64,000 bases of DNA from Balanoglossus misakiensis (lineage: Eukaryota; Animalia; Hemichordata), in contig CM082584.2 in NCBI GenBank assembly GCA_040954595.2, positions 2,759,344 through 2,823,343 of the forward strand, given 5' to 3'. Below, piece after piece: positions 2,990 to 64,000 of this stretch. A program made the position numbers and the translations under genes. Below the pieces are notes generated by a model that ran no database searches, was not told the DNA's origin, and was given only the letters and a program-made list of their open reading frames with translations. How positions within the stretch are numbered: position 1 is the first letter of the stretch; every line of letters begins with the position of its first letter.

Positions 2990-3500
2990 TGGTGGCCATA
3001 TTGGATTCTGAACTCCCTAGTAATATAAACATATAGTGTACTTAGTGAGTCTCAGTATAGGGTAATCAACACAATCAGACAAAACTTGGGTTACCCATTG
3101 GAATATTCCTATCAAATTTCAAAGCAATCCCATATGCAGTTTCAGAAAAATCAGTATTTTCTCCAAAATTGTATAATATCTTACTTCAATCGCTTCAGGG
3201 AACATGCCTACCAAAGCTCAAGGCGATCTGACATGCAGTTTGAAAGAAAATAATTTTTGATGAAAAATTCCACAACTTTCACACAAAACGCAAATATGTA
3301 AATTTCAAGTATTTTTTTTAAACATCTCATTTAATTATCCCCAAGGAACAAGCCTACCAAATTTGAAAGCAATCTCACAAGCGGTTTTAGAGGAAACAAT
3401 TTTTGACCAAAAATGGCAAAAATTGCTACAAAATTATAAATATGCACATTTTTCATCAACCAGGTTTTCATCAACTGGGACCACACATACAAAAGTATGC
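2990..3500. repeat. Fragment of a dispersed repeat with internal subrepeats; related fragments at ~6610-7200 and ~51330-51960
   Basis: The motifs CCTACCAAATTTCAAAGCAATCTGACAAG and TTTTGACCAAAAATGGCAAAA recur at all three places. Boundaries are approximate. Confidence 0.7.
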
Positions 3501-25960: not shown

Positions 25961-27609
25961 ACCGGACGCTAAGGATTTTGATTTAGGCGAAGATTGTATC
26001 GTTTGGCCATGGAAAGTAACCAGTTCACCCCGAGCAAACAGATACCAGTATACATTCAGCTCAAACACACAGCTATTCATTCTTAATCATTCTATTTTAT
26101 ATTGTGAATGAATACTTGACAAATATGTCTCTGTAAATAATTCATTTATTACAATTTTAAAATGATATCTGCAAAACACTGGTACATATACAAATCTGTA
26201 TATAAATACAAATCAGAAGAAACGGACTCTCAACTACAGTACTGGGGTAAGTGTTTGCTACCTACAGACTTTTTTGCAGCCCTTATCAGTCCCTTTCAAA
26301 AGGGTTGGGGAGTGGTGAGAGGTAAATTGACTCACCCATTCCAAGAACTACACATTTACGTCTCAAAAACGACGGTCGCACAGCAATTCTTTCATGTGAA
26401 ATCTCACGCAGTGGTTTTACATGTGTACACTGTATGCCAATTTCATTGTCAACAAACATTGACCTCCCACTTAAACACCTACTGGCTATCAGGAATGATC
26501 TTTCATTACAGTGACAATCACCTTGGCATATGCAACCTGGCCTAAGAATTACAAGGTTTCTTATTACATACAATTGCTCATCTTGTCCCTGAAAATAATG
26601 GTTCGTTCTCTTTGCTGCCCTAGTGTAGCTACTTGTTGTGAACACAGCACCTGATATAGTGAATCTCTTGTAATATTTGGCATTCACATTCAAGATAGGG
26701 TGGCCCACAGCCTCCTCTATAGCTAACCTGTCTGTCAATCTTATTTCCCGTTTGTCAGCAGCTCCCATGGCCACAACCCCTGAGCAGCTATGAAAGTCCC
26801 TCTTTAAATGCACAATTCCTCTAGACAATTTGTCAAATAGTGGCCTCAGATCACTATCCTGTGGTATAATTGTGGATCTTCTTGATAAATCTCTCCACAG
26901 ACAGAATGTGTTTGATATCTGTGAAGGCACACTTTGAGTACCCTGAAATAGCTTCATGATTACACCATTGTGACTTTCAAACACAAAGGAAGATGTAGCC
27001 CAGAGAGGTGCCCATTCCCTAACACTACTAGACAAATGCAGTAGAATGTGCATATTAAATGACATCACTTCTTTCCCATAAAGGCATTCAGTTTGAGTCA
27101 CAAACTTTCTGATTGTCTGCTCTGCCAGATCAACAGAGCGGGCTGTTACTTTTTCCTGAAGTAACGTGTGGATTCCAAAAACCAGCAAAAACCAATGGTT
27201 CAGAAAAACTGCAGGTAACACACCTCTCAGAACAATTAAAGAATAGAAAAGGAGAAATGCCCTCCACTCCGAACCTTTCCAATACTTTCTGTAATCTAAC
27301 GATCGTGGTGTCCTGGTTATTTCATTTGGAGGAAACTGCTGCATCAAACGGGAATTAATTACACATTGTTTAGCAGGGGCTAAGTACCAGGGTTTCTGCT
27401 TGTTTTCACTGTCAAGCCAAAGTGAGGTGATTTGCCTGACAACCCCTAATAAAACACAATGCAAATTAAAGCTGCAAGCAGCATTGTCCGGGCCCAAGCT
27501 CTATTATCTGATCTGATTATTAGATATGCACATAATTAATGAGTAGAAACATAATGCTGTGTTTTATCCCATGAAATATCAAGGTTATATCTTTGTTTGG
27601 TGTTGATAT

Positions 27610-31291: not shown

Positions 31292-34056
31292 AAATGATGG
31301 GCAGAGGGTATACTACCAGCACGCCAAATCTGAACTCGATCTGACTTGTAGTTTCTGAGATCTGAGATTTGCATTTTTTCAGAAAATCCAATATGGCCGC
31401 CATGTCACGTGACTAATTAAGTATTCACAAGTCACTGCACATCTACTCATTGACCTTGACCACTGTAGCAAGTTTGAGAACTGTACCTGCAGCGGTGTCT
31501 GAGATCTAGAGCGCGAAAGAAGTGAACCAAGAATAAAGAAAGAAAGAAAGAAAGAAAGAAAGAAAAACCCCAACGAAACCAATACGGGCCCAAGCCTGGC
31601 TTGGCTTGGGCCCGTAAAAATCAGGAACAAACCCTTTCACAATGTCGAAATTGGGAAGCAACATACACACACTGGGTCCCTTCACACCCAATATTGGTCG
31701 GTCTCTTTCAACCGCCTGCCTACAACAATCCTCATACTGATCGTTATTCCTCAACTCAGGATGAGGAAGATCCTGTACACTATATACACGTGCATGACCA
31801 TTGCCCTTTGCTATGTATTCCCCTGGGTGCAGGCACCAGTCACATCCATACTGCCCATTATACTGTTTGCAATTGCGCATCAAAGGCCTGGCAGCTGAAT
31901 CAGAAGAACACAATAACACATGGACACATGTTGTGATTATCTCACCAGAACTTTGATTTCTCCAGGTAAAACCATCATTACCCAATTTCACACATTCTTC
32001 AACAAATGGTGCCAAAAAACAATCCATCTGTGGTTTGGATTGACCAAACCATAGGCCAGGCATGAGAATATTTTGTTTTTGACATTTTGGAGTCAGTTCT
32101 GTCACTACACACTGAATGGGCCATATTGAGAAACCAGAGGACTTAAAGGCAGGGACCCCATCACAATTCCAGAGAAGGGTTAAGTCATTATCTCTTGTGA
32201 TACCATTTTCAAGGAGATCTTGATAAATGGAGCCATCCAATAAAGTTGAAACTGACAATTCACTATTAATATTCTGATTTTCTAATAAATCTACAAGTTG
32301 GTCCTTGATTGGCATTACAATGAAAAAATTGTTATTTGCTACAGATATTTGCTCACTGAAAGGCTCATTACAGCTACCACAAGTGGTGTCAGTTTGAATT
32401 TCGCCCTCGGCACCAAGATATGCCATACAACTACAGCAATAGAAGTGCTTCTTACACGACACAGCTGTCTCAGCAAAACAGTTCTTAAAAAAGTATGGTG
32501 TTGCTGGTACAGTTTCTGGTGCTATCAGGTTAATGACGTGCAACAAGTCTTTGAGAGCATCTTTCGTAAGTCGGTGTCTGAGGACAAAAGCCTGGAGAAG
32601 TAGACAAAGCTGTTCTGTTGTGACATTCATCTCTCCAGTTCCTTCTTCAGCTCCCTGAGAATTAGAAAAATAGTAGTACATTTAGAAAAATAGGACAACC
32701 AGAAATAACATGAACAATGCAATGGTCACACTCACAGGACTGACACATTTAATTGTGATTTGACATTTGTGAAAACAGGTTCTGATCTCTTATGCATTGA
32801 TCACCAGATTTTGAAAACAGGGGTCATGCTCTAAATAATAGGCCTCCTTGAGAATTAAAATAAATGCATTCACAACCATAGAGACACTAGCTTTCATACT
32901 TGTATTTTATAATAACGATGTGTATTAAGTTGCATTAACATATAAAACAGATTGATTAGTGGAATACTAAACGATGTTGTAATAGCTAAACAAATAAAAA
33001 AAATTTAAATTTCCGATGATCAAAAGTTGGTCACATTGCTAAAAGAATAGAGACATTTTGGTGTGTATCACTGTCATGTTTCTGTCAAGGAATCAATGTG
33101 TATATTGCACCATGTCCACTTTTTCAAGTTGTAAATGCACACCCTTCAGTAAGTACACTTACTTTGAAAGTAAATCATCAAAATAATGTAAAAAGTCATA
33201 GATCATAAGTGATTAAGGTAAGTTACCGCACAAAATTCAAATTGGCAACCATAAAATTTTTAAAGTCAAAAGCAGAACCTACCAATTCATCACCACTTTC
33301 TCCTGTGCCCGTCCCATTAGTGTTTTCGTTTGATATGCGTGTGTGTATAATTTCTTCACTTTCTTCAATCTCTCCACTTCCGTCACTCAGTAAGTTGACA
33401 TGTGACGTTTCCTGAGCTGGTACTTGGTCATCTATGATGAATGATGTCTGATCATCTGATGTTTCGTCGGCTGATAAATAGTCATCTGTGTCTGGTTCTG
33501 TAGTGCTGTATTCATCAATGTCTGTATCTCTGTGAGAGAAAGTTAGTCCACTTCGATAACTGTCATGAGAGGCGTTACCATCATATAAATATTCATCATT
33601 GCCACTTTCAGATTGGTAGTCACTATTTACAGAACAACTGTCAGTGTCGATGGCGATATCATCAGTCTGAAAGATATGAATAGAATGTGGTTAAGATATG
33701 TATTTCAGTATAGCGGGACTACATAATGCATATTACATCATTTGATTCTAAATCTCAGAGGAAAGTGCTAATGCTTTAATAGTTCTTATAAAGAAAAGTA
33801 GGCTGGTGTCAGTAATGACCTGTTTTTTTTGTTTTTTTCCCTCAATATTCGTAGTACTAAATTATTTTTCAATTAAAAAAATACTGCATCGGCATAAATG
33901 CTGCTATATTTAGACAAAGAGTTGGAGATGTACAAGCTAGCCTTTTGGACTTTAATAAAACCAAAAAGAACAGAAATAAAATGCATACACTACCTATGAC
34001 ACCCTATAATTATAACAATCACCGAGAAATGACAGACAATGCCAGTTTTCGCCCGG

Positions 34057-37700: not shown

Positions 37701-40700
37701 AGAGCTGTTGATTTCATAGAAAATAGAAAGTATTGTAAGAACTCTGTGATAGAGTTTTTACTGTACTTTCTATTTTATCAGGTTTTCTATGACAGAAATC
37801 ATATTTATTTTGTGTCTGCCTCTAGTGTTACCAATTATTTTGGTCTTTTTCAGATTTTGGTCAATGATGAGATGATAGTAACTGCCAAGCAGCTGAGCCG
37901 CGTTGACAAATCAACAGCGAAGAAAATGACGTATGATTTGATGGCAGTGGTGTTTGATAGGGAAACACTCAGGACTCATTCGTATAGTGGCAGAGTGTGC
38001 AACTCAGTCAAGGGTTCTTTACCCAAACCAGCGCTGGATGCCGACAAAATAAGAGCCATTAAAGGTATGTAGGTATTAAGTTACTTATCATCTCCAATTA
38101 TTAATTTGCTATTTTAGGTCATAGGAATACACAAAGATATATTGGCATTTTGTATATTTGGAGTGATCAGTGATGTATACCTCTTTAAGATGGGTCCCTA
38201 GGATCTTTTTGCTCGTTGCTATGGGCCTTTATAGGACATTACACCCCGATTTGGACTAAGCCGTTTTCAGAGTCTAACAAGGGGCTGGTAACTAGTTAAA
38301 AATACGCACGATTGTGAGCACACCCCCTGTCCGAGTATGGTTACGGCGGCTACCGCCCGGCCATAGGTCACCACGCTAATATACGGCAAAGCAGCGGTCA
38401 GCGATAATATTTGCATAACAACGCCCGCTCCGAGAGTTTGATAATAACGTGAATCGCGAGAATATCACTGTACGCATGCGTCTAGAAATGTAAACATAAC
38501 CTCTGATGACCTTGCGCGATTACGCAATTTGCCGGCACTTACGGAAAAAAATATTTTTTTTTAAGAATTATTAAAAATTTCATGTGTCATGCCTCGCAAA
38601 AGGAAGAGACAATTTTTAGCAGCTGTTGCAAACGAAAAGCGTTGGTGTAGACTACCTTCTCAAGAGGATCCCGACATCGATAGGCTGGCATCGGAAAACG
38701 GTAAGTTAGTACGGTGTTCATATTTCATATTAACCTGTATGGGATTGGGTCGAAGTATTTTCTGTTGACCGCTTATTAACCGTGGCATGTACAAACATAT
38801 TTTTTGTAATCAAATGGGAAACTTTCGCTACATAAATAGGTGGTAATAAAGAAACAAATGATTTTTGCAGTGATCGACCCTTTTCTTTCGTGACAATACT
38901 GACATACACGCCCGGCATACACGTAAATTTGACGAGGCAACAAATGTGTACTACTGTCTCATGTTGATGCACCAGGCGCCTTCGCAGCAAATACTAGTAT
39001 TCAGTTTCATTAATACCAAATTCGCGGATGCACTGAAATCACAACCGAGGCGCCGCGTGTTCAAATAATAATCGAGAATTGTCGTACAACATGAAACACG
39101 GCCGCGGGTACTGACGCTCGACAGGCGGACGAACATGCCAGCTACGAGTGTTGGCTGTGCCGTTCACCCGTTTCGCGTCAATCACGGTCGGCTCCACGTC
39201 TGTATTGTGCGTAGGCGCCAATAGGTGCAGACATGTAGTCCTGCATTTCATGGCCTCCACCAAAATATTGTACACGTACGCCAGGCAAGTGGCAATCAAT
39301 GTTGACAAGGGCTGAATTATACTCGCGATGGGGGCGCTCTTGTATTGACCGGGGGGGGGGGGGGGGGGGGGAGGGGTCAGTGGCATATTATTTGCATGTT
39401 TTATGCTATTAGGTACCAATCACATACTAGTAATAATTTCCTAATTTTTCTACAGCTCTGGTGCCAGATCAAGAGTTCTGGAATGCAATTAACCTTCCAC
39501 AAGCACCTAATCTGCCTTCACACCCTCTGCAAAACTGTAGTTTGCCAAATGATTTTCCCCACTCTTCCGTGCACGAATCAACATCAGTTTCATGTCAAAC
39601 TAAACTTCAAGATTTCATGGAATCAGAAAATTTATCATTTCCCTTTCCACTAATCAGTAAATCCCTCTGTGATTATGTACAACCTAATGATCCACTATTA
39701 TTAACATCTGACAGTATTGAAAAATTAATATCCCAAACAACCTGTGGTCAGTGTCGACTGGGAAGATTACAACAATTACATACCCATAGTCCAAAATTAC
39801 AATTCAAATGTGACATTTGCAATCATCAGATTGATCTTACAGAAAACAAAAAAATACCCTCCATTACAAAACCTAAGAATTGGCTGCCGACGTACACTGT
39901 CATGTCATTCCTTATGTCTGGGCAATATCACAAAGATTACAGTGATGTTATGGATCTGATGGGATTGCCCAAAGTGTGTGGAGGAACTTTCGATAACAAT
40001 ATTAAGTGGATGTTTCCAGCTGTGACAGCACTGTGTGACTGGTCATGTGCGCAAGTGCAGAAGTCCATTATTGAGAGGGGGGATGGACAACAGTGGGATG
40101 CTGTTGCTGACGGATTCTATGGAAGTCGGAGAAATGCAAACAACAGCTCTTTTACTTTACATGATTTAGAATCAGGTAAAATTGCTTTTAGAGCGCATAG
40201 AACCAAGTTGGGTCAGGGCCATAATTGGGAAGGGACTAGTGCTGGGACTGAGGGGAACATGTTTGGGGAAATATGCAGAGGTGTAAAGGAATCAGACATG
40301 GCTATAGGGAGGCTTATAGCGGATAAAGATGCTGCTCTCGCCAACATCTTAGTTGAGGTTTTTCCAGAAGCTGAAGTTATATACTGCAGCAACCATGTTA
40401 AGAAAGCTCTCTTTGCAGAATTGGCAACCTTGTCACATATAAAATGTAAGGTAAGAAAGAAATTAGTAGTGATCATTGTAAATGTACCCTCTTAAAGTTT
40501 GTATTTTTCAATTTCCATCATTTGATAGGCGGACAGTTTGGTTCATTGTTTTTGACACTGCCAGACAATAGATTTCTCAAGGGGAAATGGAAATGGGAGT
40601 TTGACAAAACTACTTATAATTCATGATAATTTTTGAAATTTTCATTTATTGCAAATTCATTTTTTACAATTAACAAAATAACGATTTGTTCTATATAAGA

Positions 40701-43700
40701 CCAGATTTACCTTATTCATAGCACACATTATCGGTACATTGCATATTTTGCCTTTTTCAACAGTGTACCAAGAAATGTGATCGATTCGTTTCAAGCAAAC
40801 TGGAATCTTTCAAAGAATCATTCAACCACTTCATAAATTCAGAAGACATTCTTAATGCAGAGAATCCACTTCAAGAGTTTTCATCAGCCATCAAGAATTT
40901 CCCCCGACACTATGCAGACGACCATTCCTCACACTGGTGTAGATTTCATCCTAAGGTAATTATCGCATTAACTGATGCAAACTCCTTATATCTGGAAAGT
41001 AATAACAATATTCTGCTTTAATTATAATTTAGACAAATATTGGAAAAAAGCATCATCACATCAATGCAAATCCCAATTGTGTATTGTAGTATGCTCGGTC
41101 TGAACCCAGCTATCCGATTGGCTGGCATGTTCTTAAACAATGAGTGGTGAGGACCTTGACTGAATAATTTCAGTTTTGAAGAACATATTTAAATAATTAC
41201 ACGTCAGTGAGGGCAATGTCATGACCTTTTGCCTGCATGTGGGACGGTGATCTCTGACCATAGTATTGATGATACCCGAGCCGCAGAGATCACCATCCCG
41301 AGTACGGAATACACAGTGGTGTAATAAACATGTGTAATTTTTTTTTCAGGAAAAGGATGGAAAGCCCTACACCACAAAAAATCGTATCAACTGCCCAGAA
41401 CAGCTAAAGAAGTTTACAGAAATTATGATGAAAGTGGCATCAAAACCAGAAGAATATATCCATCCAACTGGGAGATTCACTACGAATGTAGCAGAAGCCT
41501 TCCATTCCCTAGCACTTAAATATAGAGACAAGAGAATATATCTTGGTCACATGCATTACTGTTTGAAAACAGATATGGCAATCTTACACAAGGTAAATGT
41601 TCATTTGAATTGCTTCAAGTCCATGAATACCAGAAAATTCCTCTGTGTTGTTTTTAGGAAATTATTGTTTACACATGTACTGTATTTTACTTACTTAGAA
41701 TATTGGACCTATATGGAAGCTGCTTCTCTTCATGTATCTCAAGGTTGATATTCCTGAAATGGCAATAGATCAAATATTTAAACAACAACAACAATGGGTG
41801 GCAAAGAAAGAACAAAATAAATGTGAGGAGACTATCAAGAAGAGGTATGGGTTTTACTGACTGATATATAACTGAATTATACAGTTAGTTTTTATGAGTT
41901 CTCAGTGACTTTAAAAACATGTTGTTTTATATGCACACATTAGATCACGTTTTCCCATGTTATTTAGATAAAATTTTTAAAAAGCACCATCATTACATGC
42001 ATAGTGACTGCAATTACTACTCTATGGGTTTGTCAGTTATGTATCTCGTAATCTCATTTATATGAATGTCACTAGGTCAGAACAGAAAAAGAAGAAAAAA
42101 CATCGTCTGCTTCATGAAAAATCCAGAATGGATAGCATAAGAGGAACCGGGGTTACAACTGTTCAGTATGTTGGAAAAAGTATGGCCTTAGAACAGAGTG
42201 ACAGCAGTGATGATGATACTGTCTTCAATGAAGAAAATGTCCATGCTGTCCCTTCACCACCACCACCACCACCACCACCACCACCACCATCTGCTTCTAC
42301 TACTGCCGCTCATGTTGTTGATGATGATGATGGTGCTCCCAGTGTTACATCCAATGCTATTCCAACTACATCTGTTTCTAACCACTCAAAACCCACAGAA
42401 AAAAAAATCTTCATCTTCTTTGACATGGAAGGAACTGGTGGTAATACTCACAGAGATAGCATCATTGAAATCGGAGCAAGTCTGTACATTCCACATAGAA
42501 ACTGCCATCTGGACTGTCCTCTGGAATTCTCGACTCTTGTTCAAACTTCTGCAAAGGTAAAGTCAATAGGTAAGTTCACTATGTTTCTGTATTGAATTTG
42601 CGAACAATCAATGCACTGTTTCTAACTTTAGCCATACATGAACATTTTAAATTGTTAATGAAAACAGTTATATCAGCTTTATTTGATTACAGTATAATTG
42701 TTTACAATGTTATCTCTTTTAATACCTTTAAGTTGCCACGAAGACAGGTATTTCCCAAACGATGTTGCAGGGAAAACCCAAACTATCAACAGCGCTACCA
42801 AGGTTCATGGATTGGATTGCTACGGTTGTACAGAAGACTAAAGAACAGTTAACTTGTGAAATTACCCCAGGTGAGTATCAAGAAAAAACATTCAGTTCAG
42901 TTCACAATATTTACCTCAGATCCAATCCTATGACCATTACATTCCACGAGCCAAAAGGATGGAGATAAATAAGATACTATTGTCTGGTGCCAAAAAGTCA
43001 GCAATCAATAAACTTACTTGTTTACCATATTGAAAGTATAATGCCTACAAGGAGAAAAAAAGAAATAGAAACAGAAATGGGAAATAGTTAGAGGTAATGA
43101 ATGGAGTGGAAAAGCGCAGGTTAACAGTTACCATTGACATTTTTTAAAGGGGTCTTGATGCAGCTTTTGATGATAGTTCTACTTATAGTAATTGTACATG
43201 ATAGTCCTGACTTTTTGTTTTGAATGTCACTAAATGGTTGACAATTTCTTTACCGTATATTTTTTCTTACAGTGTTGGTGGCACACAATGGCTTTGGTTA
43301 TGACTTCCCTCTACTATTTAAAGAAGTACATGTGAGGGGAATGATGGGTGATATTATGACAAGAATGGAAAACAGCAAAATGTTGTTTGCAGACTCATTG
43401 AAGCTATGTAGAGAGGTGAATTAAAATTTCAATATTCACGTCATAGAGTACACAATCATCGGGATTAGTTTTCCCTGGCCATGGGCCTAGATGTGAACCC
43501 AACTTAATAAAATTTGTGTGTGTGAACACAACACTACTCAAAGGATTAATGCTCTGTGTTTACTATGGGCAAATAGTGTCTCAAATTTTACCCTGTGTGC
43601 ACCTGGTATTAGAGCCTGAGGAGATAATGATAATCAGATTTACGTAATCTATCTTGTTTTATTAAAATTACAAAACAACCCTTTCATTACAGCTTAAACG

Positions 43701-50127: not shown

Positions 50128-53100
50128 CTGAAATACAACAACAATCATTTAACAAAAGGTATATGTAAACAATGTCTACTCTGATTGTAGACAGATTTGA
50201 TTAAACATTTTATGAAACATTTAAAGGTAGGAACCTCTAATAAAAGCAAGTGAGTCAAAAGTCAAAAAGAGCGACTTTGTCCCTTTAACCCTTTCACCCC
50301 AAGTTCCTTCTATACAGGTCAAACCTTTTCATAGAAAACAATGGGTTTTGACTGAACCTTGGTTGTGAAAGGGTTAATGGGCTTCCATAATTAGTGTTCT
50401 TTAAAATTAGAGGGTGGTACTTAGGGGTTATTACACTAAATTTGGTGAGAACAATAGAAAGTGGCAAATTCAGGCTCTGCATGTAAGATACTAATGACAA
50501 TTAGCCTTCTGCTTTAGAATCATCACCATTAAGCTATATTGATTGTATCCGCATCAGTTTATCATCTTTTGCTAATGCATAACACGACTGTTGTGTACTC
50601 TTTGAATGGAGGCTGATTAAATCGGTGTGACACCCATTTAAAATAACACTAAATAACACAAAACTACAATGTGTGCGCGCAAATATTTTGTCACAGTTGC
50701 GTGACATGCGCACACAAAAAATCCATTGAAAGATAACAGCGGGCGAGGCTATCTGGGGCGCCTTGTCAAGGTTGGCCGGTCAGGCGCCCTGTACACATGT
50801 ACGCGTATGCGCGCTTGTATGCTGTAGCAGGACGCACAATGATGTACGTGCGGTAACCTAGGCCACAAACTTGACACGTGTCGGGCTATAATTTATGCAC
50901 ACAGAAGCCATTAGATATAACAAAGCAAGTAGGGCTTCTGGGTCATTTTCCTTGATGATATAACACAAGAATTCCATACCTTGTCTGTACTTAATACGTA
51001 TCGGGGGGGGGGGGGGGGGGGACCACTGTACACAGTCTCTTTCATGATGTTTATGTACTTTATTCGCTACATTCTAAATGATATTTTTTGTGTTGGGCCA
51101 TCTAGACATGAAGGGAGAACTCATTCAAGTATGTTTATCTGAAAGCCTGCTTGTCTATCGCTATTTTGTTGCACGTAATTCAAATACAATTTCACGAAAA
51201 AAAAATTGGCTCTTTGCGTGCACTGCGCGTAAAAAATAAAATATCAAACGCAAGCCCAGTAGAAATTCCAAATTACCTATGATATGATTTCATAATAATT
51301 CTAAAGAAGCCAATCCCATTAACTTACAACTAAAATTTATAGAAATCAGCCATACAGTGTACACTTTCTGAGAAATATAATTTTTTATCAAAATTGGTAA
51401 ATATACCCCCAAAATACAAGACATTGCCCCCACAAAACATTGACACTTTCATCATAGGTTTTGTAAATCATCATGACAACTCACCATGGAACCTTCAAAT
51501 CAAATTTCAAAGCAATGGGGTAGAGGGTTCTGAGAAAGAGTTTTGACCAAAAATGGCAAAATTCACCCCAAAAATATACTATTGAATTCTACAAATTGAT
51601 TTGACAAACACACATCTCTATGCCTACCAAATTTCAAAGCAATCTGACAAATGGTTTTACAGAAAAAAATTGATCAAAAAGGCAAAATTTGCACCAAAAT
51701 TATAAATTTGCAAATTTTGCAGCAAATTTAAACAAAACTTTGATAACTCACATCACCTATATGAAGCCCCATACTAAATTTCAAAGAAGTCAGGTCATCA
51801 ATTCCAGAAAAGTAGATTTTTTACCAAAAATGTGGAAAAAGACAAAAAAATACATAAATTATAGAAAATTCAAACTATTAGTTCAAAACATACACAACTG
51901 TGTGAGGTTAATATAAGGTACATGCATACCAATTTTCAAATCAATATGACCAGTGGTTGTTGAGTTTCTGAGTTTTGGCCAAATTTACGTTTTTCCCAAC
52001 AACTTCATTTGAACAAACTCCCATCTACAGCCCTGCCTGCATCTGCACACCAAATATCGAGGTTATATGCTCAGCGGTTTTCAAGTTTTTGATGTGAACG
52101 GACATACATCCATACAGACGCAACCGATCTCATGAGGTACCACCAGTATATACAAATGGGACCTAAAGATATTTCGGTGCAACTTGTAGACTGCATCATA
52201 TATATATATTGTGTTGTCGCCCAAATTGTGTGTGTGTGTGTGTGTGTGTGAGGGGGGGGGGGGTTCCCAATGTGCCCTTCCTATGATATCTGCAATAATT
52301 GTAGCCTAGATGGGATGATTGATCAAGCCCATAAGCGATCAACCAGCCCACCAAAGCTACAATTATTGCACCTATTCCTATGATAGCTGGATCCATAGGG
52401 TAAACTGTACAAAACAAATAAGTGTCAGTATAAAATGTGGTAACTTTTGGCGTTTGTTTCTTCCCACTGAATTTCGACATCGCAAAGTGATTTCAGATGT
52501 CAGTTTATATTTATAATAACATTACTGCCACTAAGAAATATGAATGAAGTTGCACAGTTCATATAAACATTACACCACTGGCAACTGTGCTATATCATGC
52601 CACTTTTATGACCCCTTTTGACCTCTACATCCTGGCTTTTTGTCGGTGTGTGAGTATACAATTTCGAGTTTACCAACCATGCTATTGAATCAATGCATTT
52701 TTTCTCATCCTTGAACAAAACTGGTGAACATTGCCTGTTAGAAAAGGTTAGCTGTTCAACATTGAATGATGAATGATGTCAAACCAACAAATCACCAGGA
52801 TGTAAGGTCACACAGGGGTCATGAAAGAGGCCTGTAAGATACTCTTGTTCTCTGCCCACTTTCTAACCCTGCTGTCACTACCAGCAGCAGGAATGGGACA
52901 GGGGACCAGGCTATATCTATAGGACTGTTTGCTAACATTAAGTGTGTTTACTTGAGTAAGTTGGGTACTATAAAAAGAATTGTCACCATTACTGTAGGGG
53001 GAGACATGAGTCTACCTGGTTGATTTATATTTTACATAATGTGCTTAGATTAATAGAAATAATTTATGCATAGTTACTTAGGAACACTTCCATAACTAGT

Positions 53101-53832
53101 CTGCATTTTGCCTCTGCCAAATAGTAAAGAAAAAACATCAGAGAATAGGCAGAGTAGAAACTAAACTGCACTCTCCTAAATATAAAATGGTTTACCCCTA
53201 AGTCTAATGTGATGCATAGTGTGATTCAATTTGTGTCAATAAAATTGCAACCACATCAGTGTTCAGTGAAAACAGTATGTGACATACTTTTCCACCTGAC
53301 CAAATCTATTAGAAACACATTTTTTAAAGAAATTGTTTTAAAGGGGCAGCTGCTATGACATTTGGGATTAATAGAATCTCACACTCCCAAGGACCTGGGA
53401 TCATATTTCTCACACGAGTTGGGGATTTTCTGTCACACACGAGCCGCAGGTGAGTGTGGGACAAAATATCCCTGACGAGTGTGAGAAATACGATCCCAGG
53501 TCCTTGGTGTGTGAGATTATTTTTCTCACACGGTCACAAATTAGCCAAATTCGTTAAAACATTGAATAAATGACTCTGGAACTGTCGTCTGGGGGCACGT
53601 TATAGTTCTGTGCCTGTAATACACATCACGCCATTGGATAACATTTAGTGCGCGAAGAGAAAGAACTCTTTGTCAACCAATCAGCGCTCGCGTCATATAC
53701 AGCTTTCGATTCAGTGAGAGTGTGAGAATAATAGAATCTCACACTCCCAAGGACCTGAGATCGTATTTCTCACACTCGTCGGGGATATCCTATCCCACAC
53801 TCCCAGCGGCCAGCAGTGTGAGAAATTAAATA

Positions 53833-54009: not shown

Positions 54010-56904
54010 AAGGTTGAAAATTAATTCTATGTGGCCACTTAAGATTCTTGTGCTACTCCCAACAATATGATGAAACCCACAATTGATGTATAAAATACCA
54101 TCCACTAAATATTTAAATGTCACCAAAAACATTTTACTCTAAATAAATAAATATATTCTATAAAAACATATTTTTTAGACATGTTGCATATTTACGTAAC
54201 AGTAGTAAAAAAATGTGAATGATAACATTACACATTCACGGGCTATGTTGACAAGTGAAGTATAAATGGGTATATTAGCATGCTGTTTGGAGTAGAACAA
54301 GAAATTCCCATTGATACTCAGAACAAAAATATATGTACATCAATTAAAGCCAAAAGTTACAGCTAATGTCCCGTTAAGTGCATTGTAATTCAGAAAACTT
54401 CTGGAGCAGTGAATAAATCCTACTATTCCTAGTATATCAGAAGTTTTTTTCATTTTAAAAATCAAGCTAGTTGCTTTAAAAAAAAATGAGACACTACTTT
54501 GTACAAAAGTTATGACAGCTTGCATTCACGCAGATTTGAGCCAGACATCTCAAAGCGTTAACAAAAAAACATAGAGCATACTGTTTTTGCGAAGGTAATT
54601 TAAATTGCTTGTTACGTGATAGTAGTGAAAACAATGGTGACATTGAAGTAACCGAAATGTTCTCCTATATCAAGCTTTCAGAGATAATTAACAGAGAAAT
54701 GTTTATTTCAAAAAGTGAATGTCTTATTTTTTAGCTTATACAGTCACAGTATGTAATAGAGGGACTGTGATATAGTGCACTGGTTTGGCTGTTGTTTCAC
54801 TACAGATTTTTGTGGTGGGGGTCACGGGTGGGTCTATGATGGGGGAAACCAGCATAGAACCCCCCCCCCCCTCCACCCTCCCCCTAGCTGTGTTTCCATA
54901 GAGATAATGTAGTACTAAATGTGACATTATTATATGACTCAGAAGGTCACATAGCTCTGCGTACAGGTCTGTGTGTTCCCGGCTGTATGCAGAGCTAAAG
55001 GTCACACAGAGAAACCACACGACAGAGATCTCACCATCTCAAAAAGCTGACTCTGAAAAGCATGTAAAAGAATTAAGACTGGCTTACCTGTAGGAGGACC
55101 TGTGTCACACATCTCTGCCCGCCAAGGTCTTGCCAACGACCCTGGCGATGTCTGTCATCTAGTCTTGCTCCAAGCGATGCTAATCACACTGGCGGCGCGT
55201 TGTACTGTTCCTTTCCTTTATCTACAGGCACAGCGACTGCCGTAAAGCCAAGTCATCACCGGACTCATCATATCTGATATACTTCCCTGGCCGGTCGGGG
55301 CAACACCGACGTCACGATAAAACGTCGTAGGTCCCGTGGCAACACCGTAGCTACACCCTAATGAGAGAGAATATCTAGTGATCTGAGTGACGGCAACTGA
55401 TCCAGGATCTCAATCACTCACCCGGCTCTGTCAGTGTCATGGCTCTCTCTCTCAACTACGGTGCGACCTGTGATGACGACCACCTCGCAAAGTTCTGCCA
55501 AGCGCCGCCGCGTCCCATGTAGAAAGGTTGCGAAACCCTTTGAAAACACTGCCAAGAATGCTCCATTATCCGAAATATGTTCTTTCACTGACGTCTCCAC
55601 TCATGAGAAATTTAAAAAAGGGGCGTAACACGCTGTTGTAAAAGATCAGCTGATTCGCGACCAAAACATTCACGATTGACCCTTGACCTAGGATAGTCCT
55701 GTACCCTCGATCCAGCGCCAGCTAAGTTGGCGTTGTTAAAATAATTATTAGGTAAACAGCCATCACTATAAGCTATAGATGTAATTCAGTAAACCAAAAT
55801 CTTTAAAAATATATGTTGTCAAGAACAATTTATAGACCAAGGCCATGGCCAGAGGTACATCCGAAAAATACCAACTGTACATGGTTATTCTTGTATAACC
55901 TTTGACCCCGATTTGTAAACAGTGCTGCATGTTTGAAGTATCGCTCTTAAAATTGAGATTCACCTGATGCAGTGGTTTTATATGAAAGCCAGTTGGGGAC
56001 ATGTACATACGCAATAAATAAAAAATTATCTCGAGATCTCGAGATAATTCCATTCGTTTTCCTGACTTTTTATTTTTTTATCTCGAGATCTCGAGATAAA
56101 TTTGTCTAAAGAGGGCGGGTGTATTGGTACGGAGACTGTCCAGAGAGGGCGGTGTATCGGTACAGAGAATATGGCGTTCTTTTACTAGCTTGACCTAGCA
56201 CCAGGACTTTTCGTCGGATTCTGCCTTACATGCTGCATCGTATCTTATCAGACTGACTGAGTGTTGGTAAGTTGAGATTTTACCTCCTTCTCATAACCGT
56301 TAGATTTGTCGTACACGTAACATGACCACACGATGCACAATTTGTACTGGTTTGTGATGTGGCAATCTATTGAGTCGCCTTGCACGTCAAGCGTCATCAT
56401 GATCATGCCAAACACGATCGACGCGACGTTGACAATGTGCTGCATGCAATAGGTTGACTGAGACGTTCTTGTCAGTATCTCGTACTCAACTTAACTTGCT
56501 TGATTTTTGATTCATGATGTAACATATGCCATCAATATATATATATATATATATATATGCCATCACAACTTGAGGCTAACTCTGGCCTTATGCCGCGCTG
56601 TTTGAAACATATATCATACATGATTCAACTTGTGTGTGGGGCGGATAGTTACATCGCCTAGGATCAAGTTGCCATAACTGGATTCTTCCAATAAATAAAT
56701 GCACTTTAACTTGATCTTGAATATTAAACAATGCAATGTTAACATCAGTACAGCTGCTGTGATTTATTTTACTTTGCTTCAGTCTGTGATTATGACACAG
56801 ACAAATGTGAGTGTGTATGGTGACCTCAGTACATCCAAGGTCAAACGTCAACAACTCTTCAGTTGATATGAAAGTTTCAAACAAAAAAATTAAAGCAAAA
56901 TAGG

Positions 56905-56953
<49 letters not shown>

Positions 56954-57044
56954 TGAGTGTGTATGTGTCTGTCTATGTCTGTCTCTATGTATTAATGAGT
57001 GTGTGTGTAATGTTTGTGCACATTGATTGACTTGATTTAATATT

Positions 57045-57357
57045 TAAGCAATAAAACACCCCCAGCCATGGTATACCACGAGATTTTGACCAGTTCACGA
57101 CATATACGCACGAGCGATAGCGAGTGCGTATATGGAGTTGAACTGGTCAAAATCGAGTGGTATACCATGGCTGGGGTGTTTTATTGCTATTATATTATGC
57201 CAGTATATTGAAACTTTGCATTAAACATTTTAAAAAGGCATTTTCTTTGACTATGATATATGACTGTGGTATATGGCTAATATATCACGGTCACGTGTCG
57301 TGTCTCGACCAATCAAATAGCGTGATTTACACCATCAATATACTGGTATAATATAAT
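57045..57357. mobile_element. Unclassified palindromic non-autonomous element (Crypton-like hairpin architecture)
   Basis: ~145-bp palindrome centred on GCACGAGCGATAGCGAGTGC, followed by a second inverted pair TATATTATGCCAGTATATTG / CAATATACTGGTATAATATA. Confidence 0.6.
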
Positions 57358-57454
57358 GAAGATTTAAGCACCGATGGCATTTATTACAAAGAGTTATATT
57401 ATTATCAATAGAGTCCAAGTTGAAGTCTTAATCACTCCCTAAATTATTTTAAAT

Positions 57455-57565
57455 TGTATGTATGTATGTATGTATGTATGTATGTATGTATGTATGTATG
57501 TATGTATGTATGCATGTATGTATGTATGTATGTATGTATGTATGTATGTATGTATGTATGTATGT
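57455..57565. repeat. (TGTA)n microsatellite; a (TG)n tract also lies at ~56908-56951
   Basis: Directly visible. Confidence 0.95.
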
Positions 57566-57827
57566 TGACAATTGAGAAGTTTCCTCATCAAAAATTCTGA
57601 ACAAAATTCTTGCTTCACTGTAATTTTTGGTGAAATATCAACTTTATTCAAGGTGAGAAAGTAGATAGTTTTTCCTTCTGAGATAATATTCTCAAATTTC
57701 CCAAACTGTTCATAAAAATCAAGTTGATGCATTATTTCATGCTTGTCTTTAGGTACATCAGTTTTGATTTAACTGTTGTTGATTTTCCTTACAGAAAAAT
57801 ATTACTTAAGCAAACAGATCAGACAAA

Positions 57828-60301
57828 ATGGCAGAAAAACTATATGAATTTCTTAGACGACGCAGAGTGCCTGAAGAGGAAATTGACAGACTTGAACAGG
57901 AAAAGGTAAATTTTTTATTAGTTCTTGTTGCATATATGTAAATATGGCTAAATGAGCTTTAAGGCTAGTAGGTGGAAAAATATTCATTGACAGTCTTTCC
58001 ATCTTTGTTTGTTTGTTTGTTTGTTTGTATGTATGTACCCGTATGTATGTATGTATGTATGTATGTATGTATTTAGCGAGACCCCCCGCACCCTCTGCCC
58101 ATATGCATGCACTAAGATTCCATGTGCTTTAAATTGATTTTCAGATTGATCCATCGGTGATCCTCTTAATGGATGATGAGATGTTATCTAAGTATTTGAC
58201 ATCTTATGGGGACAGAGTTGCTGCTGTGGACTTCTCTCGCAGATTATTTTGTACTGTTCCAGACAGAGAGAGCAGGAAGTCAGAACTACTGAAAAAAATA
58301 AGACAAAAATTTAGCCTTCGAAATGGAAAGCAGAATAGTGTATCAGATGACAAGGGAGAATCAAGTAAAGGTAATCGTGGACAAGCCTCAACTAGACCAA
58401 GACCATTTGGTAATACACATGCAGCAAAAATAAAGCGGAAAATTGAAATAGGATGGCTTGATTTTGATTTCATTGAAAAAGAATACAAGCAAGTTCGAGC
58501 CAGAAAAGGTGGTGGAACAAGGTGTATATCAGTAAGTAAGTCGAGCACGAAAGCTGATCTCCTGACTACAGGAAAAGATTTGTTTTTCCCCAACGGCGTA
58601 TCACAGCGAGGAGACATGGACAGTTATGACGTTGACATAAGAGATTCAGGAGAAAGAACAATTGATGAAACAAGCACCGTTGGCGAATTGTATGAAGTAA
58701 CTGGATTTAGAATGCTCCGCTTCTACATTATGACAAAGAGAAAAGACTGTGAACAGGTAGTGAAACCTAAAAAGAAGAGCAGACAAACAAGTAAGCAGTC
58801 ACAATTAGAATCAGTGTCATTGTCAGATGACAGCAGTGATGCTGATCTACCTGATCCAGGACTTGATAGGCATGTGCCAGTTCCACCGGCAAAGACGAGA
58901 CAAGCAAGCAAGGGACAGTCACAAGCTCTTCCACAGGAATCTATTGATATGTTGTCTGATGAGAGCAATGATGCAGGTGTACCAAGTGCAGGAAACCACA
59001 ATAAGCATATCCTAGATACAGTTCACCATGATCATGGTATGCCCAGTTGTAGCAGATTCCAGTCTGAACCCATCCCTGACGTAGGTTCTGAAGTCACATT
59101 AGAGACAGTCGATTCTGATGCAGAACCACTGGTGATTAGTGATAATGATTCAAACATTGTTCAGTTTGGATCACGGGGTTCCAATAGTAACTCAGCAGAA
59201 AGCCTTGATTCTACATTGCCGTTCTTTGAAAATGATGAACCTGTTAGCCAATCCCAGCCCCAAGACACTACCAGTCATATCAGTGAAGATCAAGACCCAG
59301 TGGAGACTAGAACACTTGTAATACACAGGAGTGATGTTTTGAATGACATGATTTCAGAATTCTCAGATCCAAAGATTATGGCATGTCCTATCAATGTGGC
59401 CATGGTTATGCCAGGAGGTAATATTGAGCGTGGTAGTGGTAGTGGAGTTGTGAGAGACTGTTTTACAAGTTTTTGGTCCGAGTTCTATGAATGTTGCACA
59501 GTTGGAAAGAATTGCCGGGTGCCATTCATTAGGCATGATTACCCAAGAGAAAAATGGGAAGCTGTAGCAAGAATAATCATGAAGGGTTGGAAGGAAATGG
59601 ATTACTTCCCTATTGAGTTTGCAAAGCCATTCATGGAAGAAGTAATGTTTGGAGACCAGAAGTGTGAAGAGGCAAGTCTACTTCAAGTGTATTATCACTT
59701 CCTGTCTGAATCGGACCGTGAAGTATTTGAAGCTGCAATGAAGAACTTCCAAGAAGTAGAAGAAGATGAGTTAATTGAAGTGTTAGACCGACATGACTGT
59801 AAAAGACTGCCAACCAAAGAAAACATTGGATCCATTCTGCACGAAATAGCGCATAAAGAGATAGTACAAGAGCCAATGTTTGTCATTGATAGTTGGCGAC
59901 CAATCTTACAGCCATTAGGCAAACAAATTGGCAAAGAGAACTTGGATAGACTGTATAATGACAAGAAACCAACAACAAAGAAAGTCCTACAACATCTTCA
60001 AATCGCCGAATGCTTGAATAATGATGAGAGGGCTGTTGCTAATCACTTAAAACGATACATCCGTGAACTTGAACAAAGTACTCTAAAGAAGTTCCTGAGA
60101 TATTGCACTGGTTGTGACATAATGACAGCAGAGCCGATTCAAGTGTCATTTGTTAAACTTGATGGTTTACAACGTCGTCCAGTTGCTCACACATGTGGCA
60201 ATGTGCTTGAACTGCCATTGTCATATGCCAACTTCGTAGAATTCAGAAGTGAGTTCAATGCAGTTTTGAACAGTGGTTTTTGGGACATGGATATTATTTG
60301 A
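57828..60301 (+). CDS. SAM-like + HECT-domain E3 ubiquitin ligase (G2E3-like HECT), 744 aa. Exons 57828-57905 and 58145-60301
   Basis: Phase-0 GT-AG intron. N-terminal LYEFLRRRRVPEEEIDRLEQEKIDPSVILLMDDEMLSKYLTSYGDR is SAM-like. HECT motifs: GSGSGVVRDCFTSFWSEF, FLRYCTG and RPVAHTCGNVLELPLSY with the catalytic-position Cys. Confidence 0.88.
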
Positions 60302-60685
60302 GACCATTGATATTGTTTCCATTGGTAGAACAGCAATGGTGAGTTATTACATGAATTAAAGGGACAATATTGTTGTGTTTGGCTTACATTGATAGAAAGA
60401 ATACAGGGAATACTTGTGTAAAGTCACTTGGTATGCAAAGTAATGATTATGTCAATGATGAACCTGACGTGTCAGAAGTCACCTCTTTGCTGCATGGAAG
60501 AGGTGAATTTATGTGGATTCATTAAGGGATGCGCCTGTAACTTTGCACTATTTTCAGTGTTTTCTTTAAATGTTCATACAGTTGCCATTTACTGTCATAT
60601 TTCCTACAAATTGTTTTATCATTGATTACGTTAAAAGTTTACACATATTATCTAATATATGGAGAAGCTAAATACTTGATGTGTT

Positions 60686-60867
60686 ATTGCAGCCTGTTGT
60701 GGGGAGTTATTCAGTTACTTATTCAGCCTGTTGTGGGGAGTTATTCAGTTACTTATTCAGCCTGTTGTGGGGAGTTATTCAGTTACTTATTCAGCCTGTT
60801 GTGGGGAGTTATTCAGTTACTTATTCAGCCTGTTGTGGGGAGTTATTCAGTTACTTATTCAGTTACT
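60686..60867. repeat. 34-bp minisatellite (about 5 copies) between the convergent genes
   Basis: Unit TTATTCAGCCTGTTGTGGGGAGTTATTCAGTTAC. Confidence 0.95.
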
Positions 60868-61386
60868 ATGTGACACAGTGTGTGACATAATGGTTAAAGC
60901 ACAGGATGACCAGGCTTGGTTATTGGTGTAGATATAATGTAAACAAACAACTAGGAGTAGTCTCTGTTCCACTCTACCAAAGAAGATCAGTGCTTTACTT
61001 GTCACTTATCGTCTGTATACTTAGTTTCTTTATTAACATGTTTGTTTGTTTGTTTACATATTTACATCTACAACCAAGCCTGGGCATCATGTGGTTTTAA
61101 GGTGCAAACAGTTGAGTCACAAAGTTGTTGTATTTCAGCTTTTATTTGCGGTGACAGTATTATACTTTACAGAATTAGATCTAACATTAACACAAAGTCT
61201 GTGCCATAGTTTCATATTACTTCAGTGTTGAAGATGAACAATATTGTCATTATGTTCTGAAAGTTAATAAAACTTTGTTGTGTTGACAAATATCTTGCTT
61301 TAATTCATCCAGTTCCTTGCATGGAAGTGACATTGTTGTTGTTGTTTGGGTGATGTATAATAATTTCCTTTTACAGTAAGGTCTTG

Positions 61387-63354
61387 CTAGTCAGATAAGG
61401 ATTCATATTTTATAGAATTTCGGAGATTCACGTACAATTCCACAGCAGAATATGGGTCAGAAGGTAAATGCATATTGTTGTCGACCATGTATGAGACACA
61501 GTACTCGAATAAATCTTCATCACAGGGGCACGCTCCTTTGAACACACATTCCTCTCGGCATGTGTTAATCTGTTCCTGAGAAACAGTTGATCCGAAATCA
61601 TGACTTCCATACATCTCCGGGACAAAGAACATCATGTGAGGTCGCCCGATGGGAGAGACTGCGTTACGTGAACGACTGATCCTGTGACAATTCCATTCCA
61701 TTACAGCATCATCTAGTTCATCCTGAATTATAAAATGACAGGCACAAAATGTATGAGGAAGTTCAATGTTAGCAGTTTAATACATGCATCAGTTAAACAT
61801 AGTCCCTAGGTACTATAGGATATCTAAAAGATACATACATGGTGACACCTCATCTACATGAACTCTTCAGACGGGAAGGTACACCTAAAATTAATTTATT
61901 GTAGTGAAATATAACCAAACAAACGGAATATAATTACAAATATTATAATTATAACAATTTACATATATTAGATTATCAATTGGTGTATAGACGGGTTTAC
62001 CAGCTGGCGTGTAATTTATGATGAGGCTTATCACACCAACAGTATTCGATCCGAGATTAATAGTAAGGTATTTATCGAAGGAGTGGAAAGTCTAAAATGT
62101 TGTCCAACATATGCATGCAGGATAGAGGTGCATAAAATGGACAATTGGAATAAGTAGACAAGGACAGTCTTAAATCACACACACAATGCATTGCAGGTTG
62201 TGATTTTTGTTCATCATGATACATATCAACACATGTACAGCACATTTTAAGCCTTTTTTACTTTGTATTTGAAGGTTTAAACCAAAATATGTGAGCAGTC
62301 CTTTCTTTTCAATACATAAAAACGTTCTTTTTTATACTCCTCCCATTTGGAAGAGCGTAGGGTTATTGTTAGTCAGTTTATACATGGGACTTCTTATATT
62401 TTATTGTATTGTACGTTTTCACTATATAATATCAATCCTAGCAATATTTTCTGTATAAGTATTTAAAGTATATACAGTATAAGTGATAGTGTAACAGATT
62501 GAGGAAAGACAATTATTTTTTAAGTCCCAAATTCTTCTTCTTACCTGTATCATTTTCAGGAAGCAAAATCTGACCAGATCTTTATCAAGATAATCACCAC
62601 TGAAGACTCCATCATCCTTTAGTTTGTAGAAAAGATCCAACCAAAACTGTCCACAGTGTTGGCGAAATGTACCCCACCATCGTTCTATGCGTTGGTTGAG
62701 TTGACTGCTGCCATAATAAAAGCAGTTGTCATCATTTGTTAGAAACTTCTGGAACTGTTCAACATGTCCATTTTCTGTGCCTCTATCCGCTCGCATGTTT
62801 TGGGGGCAAGATTTCAGACTTTCAACTTCTTTGATGAAGTACCCTGCTATAATCTTCGGATCACTGTTGGTGTGATAAGCTTGAGCCCAAATTACACGCC
62901 TGGAAAACCCGTCTATACACCCATTGATTGCTATTCCGTAAGGGGAAAGTTTGTCATACGAATCTAGGTGCCACATATAGTTCGGCCCAGGAGACCCATA
63001 CTGGCGACGGCGTAGACGACGTCTCTTTCTTAATTCCACACCTATGGGGTCAATGATCTGGAGTAACAACCGCACACTCTCCCTGTCGATAACCAATCCT
63101 CTCTGGACACACTTTAAATGCATCCACCGATAGCCGTGGAGTCTTCCAGATTTGTCAACCTCTTCTCTCAGAAATGTTATTACCTCATTGATGTCTGAAT
63201 GGTACTTCCGTCTGAAAAGTCCGAGTTTCTTCAGTAATCTTTTAAGATGACGCATACTAATGACAACGTTATGATTGACAGCTAAAGTAGCCAGGATTTC
63301 ACTGTAGTTGAAGCCCATGTTGAAATAGATACGGATTATATCATCTCTTTCCAT
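61387..63354 (-). CDS. IS3EU-like integrase-core DDE transposase, 381 aa. Exons 63354-62545 and 61722-61387
   Basis: GTCACCATGG start and an N-terminal HTH-like region. Motifs GPNYMWHLDSYDKL, GCIDGFSR, MRADRGTEN, NQRIERWW and WNCHRI. Phase-0 GT-AG intron and no stops. Confidence 0.92.
61974..62155 (+). repeat. Diverged inverted copy of the transposase catalytic-core sequence (source ~62752-62928) inside the transposase intron
   Basis: GGTGTATAGACGGGTTT...GGCGTGTAATTT...GCTTATCACACCAACAGT...GAAAGTCT...GGATAGAGG...AAAATGGACA reproduces the minus-strand coding sequence on the plus strand. Confidence 0.88.
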
Positions 63355-63789
63355 GGTGACGTTATCTGTTCGATAGAGGAGGAATGTTAATTGTCGCATT
63401 AGATAAAAGGAATTATCGTATAATGATAATGAATAATGTATAATATTGAAACCAATTGTTTAGTAACTTTACCACTGAGTCAGTTTTCTTGCCAACTTGG
63501 AAAGTAATCTCAGGCCAAGACTTCGGTAATTTGTCCCAGTACGTATAACTAGTAATTATAAATATTACGAAGTTGAAATGTCAACTAATTACCAAGACTC
63601 ATGCACTCAGTCTGATGATACGATGCAGCATGCAGCTCTGAAACCGACGATCACTCCTACCATTGAATACACTGAGTGCTTGCTTGCCAATTCTCCGTAC
63701 CGATATCGATGCATGTCCCTCTCTGGACCGATATCGATGCATGGTCCTCTCTGGACAGTCTCCCTACCAACACACCGCCCTCTTTCGAG

Positions 63790-64000
63790 AGAATTATCTC
63801 GAGATCTCGAGATAAAAAAATAAAAAGTCGGGAAAACGAATAGCATTATCTCGAGATCTCGAGATAAAAAAATAAAAAGTCAGGAAAACGAACTTGAATT
63901 ATCTCGAGATCTCGAGATAAAAAAATAAAAAGTCGGGAAAACGAATAGCATTATCTCGAGATCTCGAGATAAAAAAATAAAAAGTCAGGAAAACGAACTT
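63790..64000. repeat. Subterminal ~52-bp repeats, each with the 22-bp perfect palindrome TTATCTCGAGATCTCGAGATAA
   Basis: Four copies here and two at the left end (~56026 and ~56078). Confidence 0.95.

Follow-up and report, generated by a model that had tools for sequence, protein, structure and literature searches.

IS3EU and GingerRoot elements are DNA transposons marked by TA ends, a 6-bp target-site duplication and a transposase without the HHCC motif (PMC10045372, PMC6839031). The first IS3EU families came from zebrafish, Hydra, a beetle, an acorn worm and a fungus, and the structure and function of the superfamily are largely unexplored (PMC11934779). The present analysis concerns 64,000 nucleotides of the hemichordate Balanoglossus misakiensis (GenBank assembly GCA_040954595.2, contig CM082584.2, positions 2,759,344 to 2,823,343), hereafter called the window. 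The stretch from position 55981 is an intact IS3EU/GingerRoot DNA transposon of about 8 kb, which carries a conserved second gene for a HECT E3 ubiquitin ligase. The superfamily is known; the HECT ligase as its conserved second gene is a new variant.

The initial annotation had described a convergent pair of stop-free, spliced genes between inverted ends, and both frames, of 744 and 381 amino acids, were re-derived with zero internal stops. The HECT-ligase gene is oriented forwards. Its coding exon 1 (57828..57905) begins with the ATG at 57828 and encodes residues 1–26, the start of the SAM-like domain; exon 2 (58145..60301, residues 27–744) is a 718-codon open frame, and the two are separated by a 239-bp GT..AG intron (57906–58144). 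The transposase gene is oriented in the reverse direction, with exon 1 at 63354–62545, exon 2 at 61722–61387 and an 822-bp GT..AG intron. The splice junctions of both genes are predicted from the sequence, and full-length homologues continue across the same residues: ligase homologues P0001, P0004, P0018, P0030 and P0049 share the N-terminus encoded by exon 1, three related loci start their long frame at the same ‘ID’ dipeptide, and transposase exon 2 matches the C-terminal part of full-length homologues. About 1.1 kb separates the two facing genes. This spacer holds a 34-bp minisatellite of 5.2 copies (60684..60862, repeat search), which lies between the stop codons.

The left terminus (TATGAAAGCC...) with an imperfect inverted arm occupies 55981..56280 on the plus strand and is preceded by the hexamer GTTTTA (55975..55980, plus strand), the left copy of the target-site duplication. 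The right inverted arm (63576..64000, minus strand) runs to the window end, beyond which its terminus lies. The arms match best between 56026–56162 and 63732–63867 (89% over 137 bp), with fainter similarity out to 56280 and 63576 within a total inverted match to 63576–63997; the terminal inverted repeats of the group exceed 30 bp and measure 100–150 bp in GingerRoot, a length that the 137-bp arm shares. A 22-bp palindrome, TTATCTCGAGATCTCGAGATAA, is present twice in the left arm (56026..56099) and four times in the portion of the right arm inside the window, where the subterminal copies form a 52/53-bp array. These palindromes are likely transposase-binding sites. Similar short-palindrome arrays stand upstream of the transposase in six of the metagenome loci considered below (L004, L007, L013, L022, L031 and L041).

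The ends were studied by mapping contigs of public sequencing runs (Logan; runs X1 and X2) onto the region. Run X1 contains 95% of the sampled words; it is possibly the source sample and is therefore not independent support. The Logan contig covering the left flank ends at 56010, i.e., 30 bases past 55980, which would be expected for a 31-mer graph branching at a terminus at 55981 (the word length of 31 letters was taken from the texts of the tool). In X1, the contig spanning 55981–56025 has a depth of 2,500, twice that of the element interior (about 1,130–1,290). In another X1 contig, this terminus stands next to a different flank, whose final six letters, TAAAAC, are the reverse complement of GTTTTA. 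The depth of this contig, about 1,520 by subtraction from the depth table, resembles that of the left flank (1,613). The contig is interpreted as the right junction, at which the 6-bp duplication is perfect, the assignment to the present copy being based on the depth match. A second terminus, with the duplication foreseen in the initial annotation, is thus found in a run contig, and the right end of the element is predicted to read ...GGCTTTCATA followed by GTTTTA, past position 64000. The left end begins TATG at 55981, so TA..TA termini, the second of them known through the run contig, and a 6-bp duplication are both present, as in IS3EU/GingerRoot elements. A low-depth contig (27.7) matches 55975–56005 with one difference and then enters another flank; a target preference for GTTTTA-like sites is therefore possible, and the argument that the duplication would be unlikely by chance would weaken accordingly.

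Among the X1 contigs, no dispersed high-depth flanks were found besides the two ends. The element interior is not deeper than the flanks (about 1,500–1,600), so numerous dispersed full copies are not indicated for that sample; the depths could reflect a single copy in a deep run, or a copy within a larger amplified unit. The element with both flanks (54954–64000) has an X1 depth of about 1,100–1,600, against 20–60 for many other matched contigs of runs X1 and X2, and the locus may lie inside such a unit. Further contigs start with TATGAAAGCC and diverge before the palindrome block (55981–56046), which suggests that a related family, perhaps non-autonomous, shares these ends.

The ligase is almost certainly part of the element and not its neighbour, as its pairing with related transposases in other genomes demonstrates. 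HECT and transposase clusters from 11 genomes were picked since both came from the same species, and gene ids served as a proxy for adjacency, without orientation. Among the members listed, at most 15 per cluster, neighbouring ids or shared small contigs were found in 7 of the 11 genomes. Id pairs occur in Synchiropus (LOC128746623/24, 128757643/44 and 128751756/57), Gymnodraco (LOC117532431/30, 117533906/08 and 117557759/62), Chaenocephalus (KUCAC02_006291/90), Sarotherodon (ACER0C_002508/09 and 024914/17) and Xenopus tropicalis (XP_031750185/186). In Hippocampus, the genes share contigs (LOC127613309/313 and 127615226/238), and in one further assembly 9 of 12 transposase members are on contigs size-matched to those of HECT members. 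The HECT gene is therefore not a single-copy, syntenic gene standing without the transposase: it is multi-copy, and paired in other species.

A metagenome scan with the transposase alignment confirmed 459 loci, of which the best 80, forming 69 clusters at 90% identity, were examined, a HECT match being either a family profile match at E ≤ 2e-3 or the catalytic motif. HECT matches are present in 24 of the 80 loci, and their share depends on how much sequence lies downstream of the transposase: a match is found in 20 of 28 loci where 2 kb or more is available, in 16 of 20 (13 of 17 clusters) where 3 kb or more is, and in 11 of 11 (8 of 8 clusters) from 6 kb upwards. Most copies with enough sequence thus carry a HECT gene. 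All 36 HECT matches are on the opposite strand and downstream of the transposase, with none upstream, which bears out the tail-to-tail arrangement proposed in the initial annotation. The motif gave 0 matches in 20 shuffles of the sequence; it was drawn up after the frames had been seen, so the counts lean upward, and Pfam provides the independent check. Run on 20 neighbouring frames, Pfam assigned HECT to 11, no family to 6, the N-terminal module to one (L037) and kinase to two frames of L080. An earlier, strict hidden Markov model search had given HECT-family matches in 12 of the 80 loci and had missed the second clade described below. In locus L080, a protein kinase (2956–4352, minus strand; Pkinase E = 2.6e-41) faces the transposase in the usual place of the HECT gene. 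A scan of 13 long loci for paired termini with 6-bp duplications found no whole element, most contigs being too short; the only matches were internal repeats of L006.

Exon 1 of the transposase gene (62545..63354) encodes an integrase core matching Pfam rva_4 (E = 5.6e-25), a family that we take, given the other features of the element, to link the protein to IS3EU. All 32 aligned sequences keep the acidic residues D131, D190 and E224, and the translation contains no Cys pair before D131 by eye, i.e., it is HHCC-free like the IS3EU/GingerRoot transposases. On sequence grounds, the 381-amino-acid protein is an IS3/IS481-like DDE transposase of this type, as initially annotated. Its relatives number 549 among 997 candidates; the best 120 of these are 51–61% identical and come from fish, frogs, molluscs, echinoderms, a firefly and others. 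The transposase intron contains a decayed, inverted partial copy of the transposase core (61975..62143, plus strand), 79% identical to 62765–62928 with indels. An unspliced transcript could form a duplex of about 170 bp from this copy, which might trigger or dampen silencing.

The ligase contains a complete two-lobed HECT domain (59294..60298), recognised by Pfam above the cut-off (E = 1e-6). Its catalytic motif is RRPVAHTC, with Cys710 encoded at 60194–60196, and the profile aligns pvahtC to PSAHTC of HUWE1. In the structure model of exon 2 (mean pLDDT 74.5), the N-terminus is helical and is followed by a beta-grasp domain, a disordered linker and the two HECT lobes. The best structural match of the last is the HECT domain of UBR5 (Z 22.6, root-mean-square deviation (rmsd) 4.3, 317 residues), and Foldseek gives E = 1.9e-12 to the HUWE1 HECT, at an identity to solved HECTs of just 11–17%. 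The N-terminal module modelled alone reaches a pLDDT of 85.7. Its ubiquitin-like beta-grasp domain (58427..58744, residues about 121–226, pLDDT mostly above 90) has a best fold match at Z 9.3 and rmsd 2.5 over 80 residues, and the top 50 matches are nearly all ubiquitin folds, Polycomb RAWUL domains among them (5fr6, Z 9.3; 2na1, Z 8.4; 3gs2, Z 8.1). The serine-rich, acidic linker (58757..59293; 32 D/E vs. 13 K/R in 181 residues) is predicted to be disordered, with pLDDT below 50 at model residues 204–365.

The N-terminal SAM-like domain is a weaker call. SAM_1 was matched in one of 43 family members, P0068, at E = 2.5e-4, below the cut-off (L039, at E = 0.07, was also below it), and residues G48-D49 are invariant in the SAM_1-aligned family alignment. 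Pfam found no SAM_1 in the exon 2 piece of the window protein, from which exon 1 was left out, and no SAM fold appeared in the fold searches, which used models without exon 1 and were filled with ubiquitin-like and HECT matches. PHD- or RING-like zinc fingers were absent by Pfam from exon 2 and from the 43 family members, and the model shows helices and the beta-grasp instead. Of the domain layout first proposed, the HECT domain with its cysteine, the beta-grasp domain and the acidic linker therefore hold, and the SAM-like N-terminus stays provisional.

A homologue search with the ligase protein scored 74 sequences among 7,991 candidates. The best match is from an acorn worm (38% over the full length), and the set spans acorn worm, many teleosts, frogs, sea cucumber, mussel, limpet and two beetles. 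The catalytic column is Cys in 67 of the 74; six rows are gapped there, one long fusion has Leu, and one of the Cys rows, P0071, is truncated and probably misaligned. In most homologues the tail is 34 residues long and ends in W-x-M-D-I-V. On average, the homologues are 50% identical to the window protein in both the SAM-like part and the C-lobe, 40% identical in the ubiquitin-like domain and in the N-lobe, and 17% identical in the linker, a pattern of purifying selection. The Cys, the conserved tail and a C-lobe at 50% against a linker at 17% argue for selection for catalysis, and the ligase is probably catalytic, judging from alignment and model. No confirmed relative was found with the HECT and transposase alignments in viral contigs or with the HECT alignment in prokaryote genomes, and a feature-based comparison of the N-terminal module with the Atlas returned unnamed clusters only. 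Five proteins (P0013, P0202 and P0206–P0208) carry two species labels, Oreochromis niloticus and Mustela putorius furo, of which the ferret one probably reflects an error in the database.

Quick trees of 25 ligase/transposase pairs divide the HECT C-lobes into the clade of the window (15 rows) and a clade B (10 rows), the latter marked by a PPLGF-like loop, a Phe near the C-terminus and a Cys invariant in 10 of 10 C-lobes. The two clades are intermixed across the transposase tree. Ligase and transposase distances correlate with a Mantel r of 0.29, or 0.34 without four teleost rows, which shared descent alone could produce. Locus L037 (2585–9369) and P0414 join a SAM-like and ubiquitin-like module of the window type to a clade-B HECT, suggesting domain exchange between elements.

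The initial annotation had proposed that some ‘G2E3-like’ genes could be cargo of this kind. This is plausible for the sister clade B, which occurs in the same elements and matches proteins annotated as G2E3-like; it does not extend to the clade of the window, in which 0 of 74 homologues are named G2E3. The clade-B profile matched 4,912 clusters at 50% identity with E ≤ 1e-3, a count that may include ordinary HECTs, and 971 at 1e-10. Among 10 long clade-B matches, two clusters are named ‘G2/M phase-specific E3 ubiquitin-protein ligase(-like)’ (Photinus; Clarias, six members), and the Atlas name for clade B is the same label, with a score of 0.97. A PHD finger was found in 0 of 21 long clade-B proteins. 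The L032 C-lobe had no longer relatives at E ≤ 1e-8, a weak negative, since the clade-B profile gave thousands. Some clade-B HECTs occur in gene models together with caspase and CARD, SIX1, fibronectin III or MADF domains (P0384, P0426, P0357 and P0383); these may be annotation fusions caused by insertions into host genes, or real chimeras.

HECT ligases accept ubiquitin from an E2 bound to the N-lobe, load it on a cysteine of the C-lobe and hand it on to a substrate that the N-terminal domains select (PMC6457168). The layout of the present ligase fits this mechanism. In the explanation that we tentatively favour, the intact IS3EU/GingerRoot element encodes a ligase, predicted to be active, that would ubiquitinate a host silencing or chromatin factor and so let the element be expressed and move. 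The transposase would bind the subterminal palindromes, cut at the TA ends and integrate the unit of 8 kb with a 6-bp stagger. A host E2 would dock on the HECT N-lobe, Cys710 would be the carrier of ubiquitin, and the substrate would be picked by the SAM-like and ubiquitin-like domains, which a flexible linker would keep apart from the HECT. The least certain step of this explanation is that a host repressor would be the substrate. Viral E3 ligases, for comparison, are directed mostly against restriction factors of the host. A host factor is favoured here because the enzyme in the slot varies among IS3EU lineages and HECT clades have been exchanged; with different modifying enzymes in this place (alpha-kinase with TET/JBP dioxygenase in rust fungi, the kinase in L080), a host target fits better than a fitted transposase partner. 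Several observations weigh against the explanation. Neighbouring ids were missing, among the members listed, from Photinus, Misgurnus, Girardinichthys and Oryzias latipes (4 of the 11 genomes), and 4 of the 20 metagenome loci with at least 3 kb downstream had no HECT (L014, L042, L044 and L051). At the fourth position from the C-terminus, the window ligase has Met instead of the Phe of canonical HECTs. The USP11 UBL, ATG8 and ATG12 score within about 1 Z of the RAWUL matches, so the ubiquitin-fold subfamily cannot be named, and the Polycomb likeness of the modelled domain serves as a lead only. The Mantel correlation fits a transposase-directed role equally well, as does L037, where the window-type N-terminal module accompanies a window-like transposase and a HECT of the other clade. 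Lastly, the HECT of human and mouse G2E3, which belong to the same divergent class, is reported to be non-functional (PMC3673628, citing Brooks 2008), and this tempers the estimate of catalysis.

A close rival, which we consider somewhat unlikely, is that the ligase acts on its own transposase, either by marking the spent strand-transfer complex with ubiquitin, so that p97 and the proteasome remove it, or by keeping transposase levels low. A function at a core step of the cycle would agree with the near-constant pairing, in L037 the N-terminal module goes with the transposase, and such a role would work in any host, suiting a range from beetles to frogs. UBX, a p97-binding fold, is moreover present in 3 of the 21 long clade-B proteins. 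However, fungal and plant relatives are described, in the accessible texts, without a HECT, L080 has a kinase in the slot, and the HECT clades are mixed over the transposase tree. It is improbable that the HECT is catalytically dead, as reported for vertebrate G2E3, and binds E2, ubiquitin or chromatin proteins in a scaffold or decoy role. The low identity to solved HECTs and a nearest named class that includes G2E3, with its HECT reported as non-functional (PMC3673628), would agree with such a role, but the clade of the window shows almost no variation in the Cys or in tail length, clade B keeps the Cys throughout and the terminal Phe too, and the C-lobe is among the best-conserved parts. The view that the HECT gene is a host gene or chance passenger, adjoining the transposon or recently captured by it, is largely refuted and highly improbable: the gene lies inside ends with a matching duplication, it has the same place and orientation in 21 of 69 distinct metagenome elements (8 of 8 with at least 6 kb downstream), and its homologues are multi-copy in fish genomes and patchy over animals. 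Against this, a passenger would suit the X1 depth of the interior, not above that of the flanks, and the capture of host gene fragments by GingerRoot elements (PMC6839031). A broader extension of the host-factor explanation appears doubtful: animal IS3EU elements would be two-enzyme machines whose ligase destroys a conserved silencing factor of the host, perhaps a component of Polycomb that docks via the SAM and RAWUL-like domains; most of the divergent ‘G2E3-like’ HECT genes of aquatic animals, which number in the thousands, would be transposon cargo; and vertebrate G2E3 would be a domesticated, catalytically retired descendant. The dating of G2E3 after the chordate/echinoderm split (PMC2837046) would fit late domestication.

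A small, high-copy hairpin element (57044..57356, inverted repeat 57060–57176) lies upstream of the HECT start codon, with a depth of about 290,000 against about 1,200 around it. X1 and X2 contigs join across it, omitting 313 bases, with a short side of just 29–35 letters, which hints at alleles or copies without the hairpin. Elsewhere in the window, transposon frames are located at 39437–40492 (plus strand), 31509–32681 (minus), 26289–27500 (minus) and 42008–42592 (plus), and Pfam identified a Mutator-like transposase (E = 3.7e-15) and a Transposase_21 frame of CACTA type (E = 4.7e-9). By eye, with no Pfam match, the frame at 26289–27500 looks like a continuation of the Transposase_21 frame and that at 42008–42592 contains an exonuclease-like motif. 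The inverted-repeat structures to the left of the element (53363–53802 and 52286–52375) are probably small non-autonomous transposons.

The pairing gives the identity of the second gene in a barely studied superfamily. Many ‘uncharacterized’ and probably some ‘G2E3-like’ gene models of fish, frogs and invertebrates are accordingly transposon genes, and the present copy, which has its two ends, two open frames and a ligase gene of simple, two-exon structure, is a ready reagent for finding the substrate of the ligase. Viruses carry E3 ligases against host defences; the literature search found no cut-and-paste transposon with its own HECT ligase. It also found no paper on HECT and IS3EU together; Repbase entries, Kojima 2019 and most supplements lay outside it and may already annotate the gene. 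The words HECT and ubiquitin are absent from PMC10045372 and PMC6839031, HECT is absent from the text and supplement of the rust-fungus IS3EU paper (PMC12730594), and the accessible parts of two HECT surveys (PMC3673628, PMC2837046) make no mention of transposons. Three further sources (bioRxiv 2021.09.26.461848, PMC13015453 and PMC9547173) have, in their accessible parts, no bearing on the pairing.

Compared with described systems, the element shares with IS3EU/GingerRoot the TA termini, the 6-bp duplication and the HHCC-free, integrase-like DDE transposase (PMC10045372, PMC6839031), as well as the long inverted arms, the length of about 8 kb and the occurrence in aquatic animals. Its terminus is TATGA, against TAYGG in rust-fungus IS3EU families, and it carries a conserved whole second gene, in contrast to the host gene fragments of plant GingerRoot. 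Class IV HECTs (UBR5, G2E3, GL-Metazoa; PMC3673628) include the best structural match of the window ligase, the UBR5 HECT, and clade B, found in these elements, resembles proteins annotated as G2E3-like. PHD and RING fingers were found neither in the window protein nor in the 21 long clade-B proteins, and the SAM-like and ubiquitin-like N-terminus of the former differs from the PHD/RING type of G2E3. KolobokP likewise combines a transposase with a convergent accessory gene; its transposase belongs to another superfamily, and the accessory gene on the opposite strand encodes a His-Me nuclease, not a ubiquitin ligase (PMC9587614). The rust-fungus IS3EU elements also have a second enzyme gene opposite to the transposase, for which a role in escape from silencing has been proposed (PMC12730594); their cargo is an alpha-kinase with a TET/JBP dioxygenase alongside, and that of the present element is a HECT ligase.

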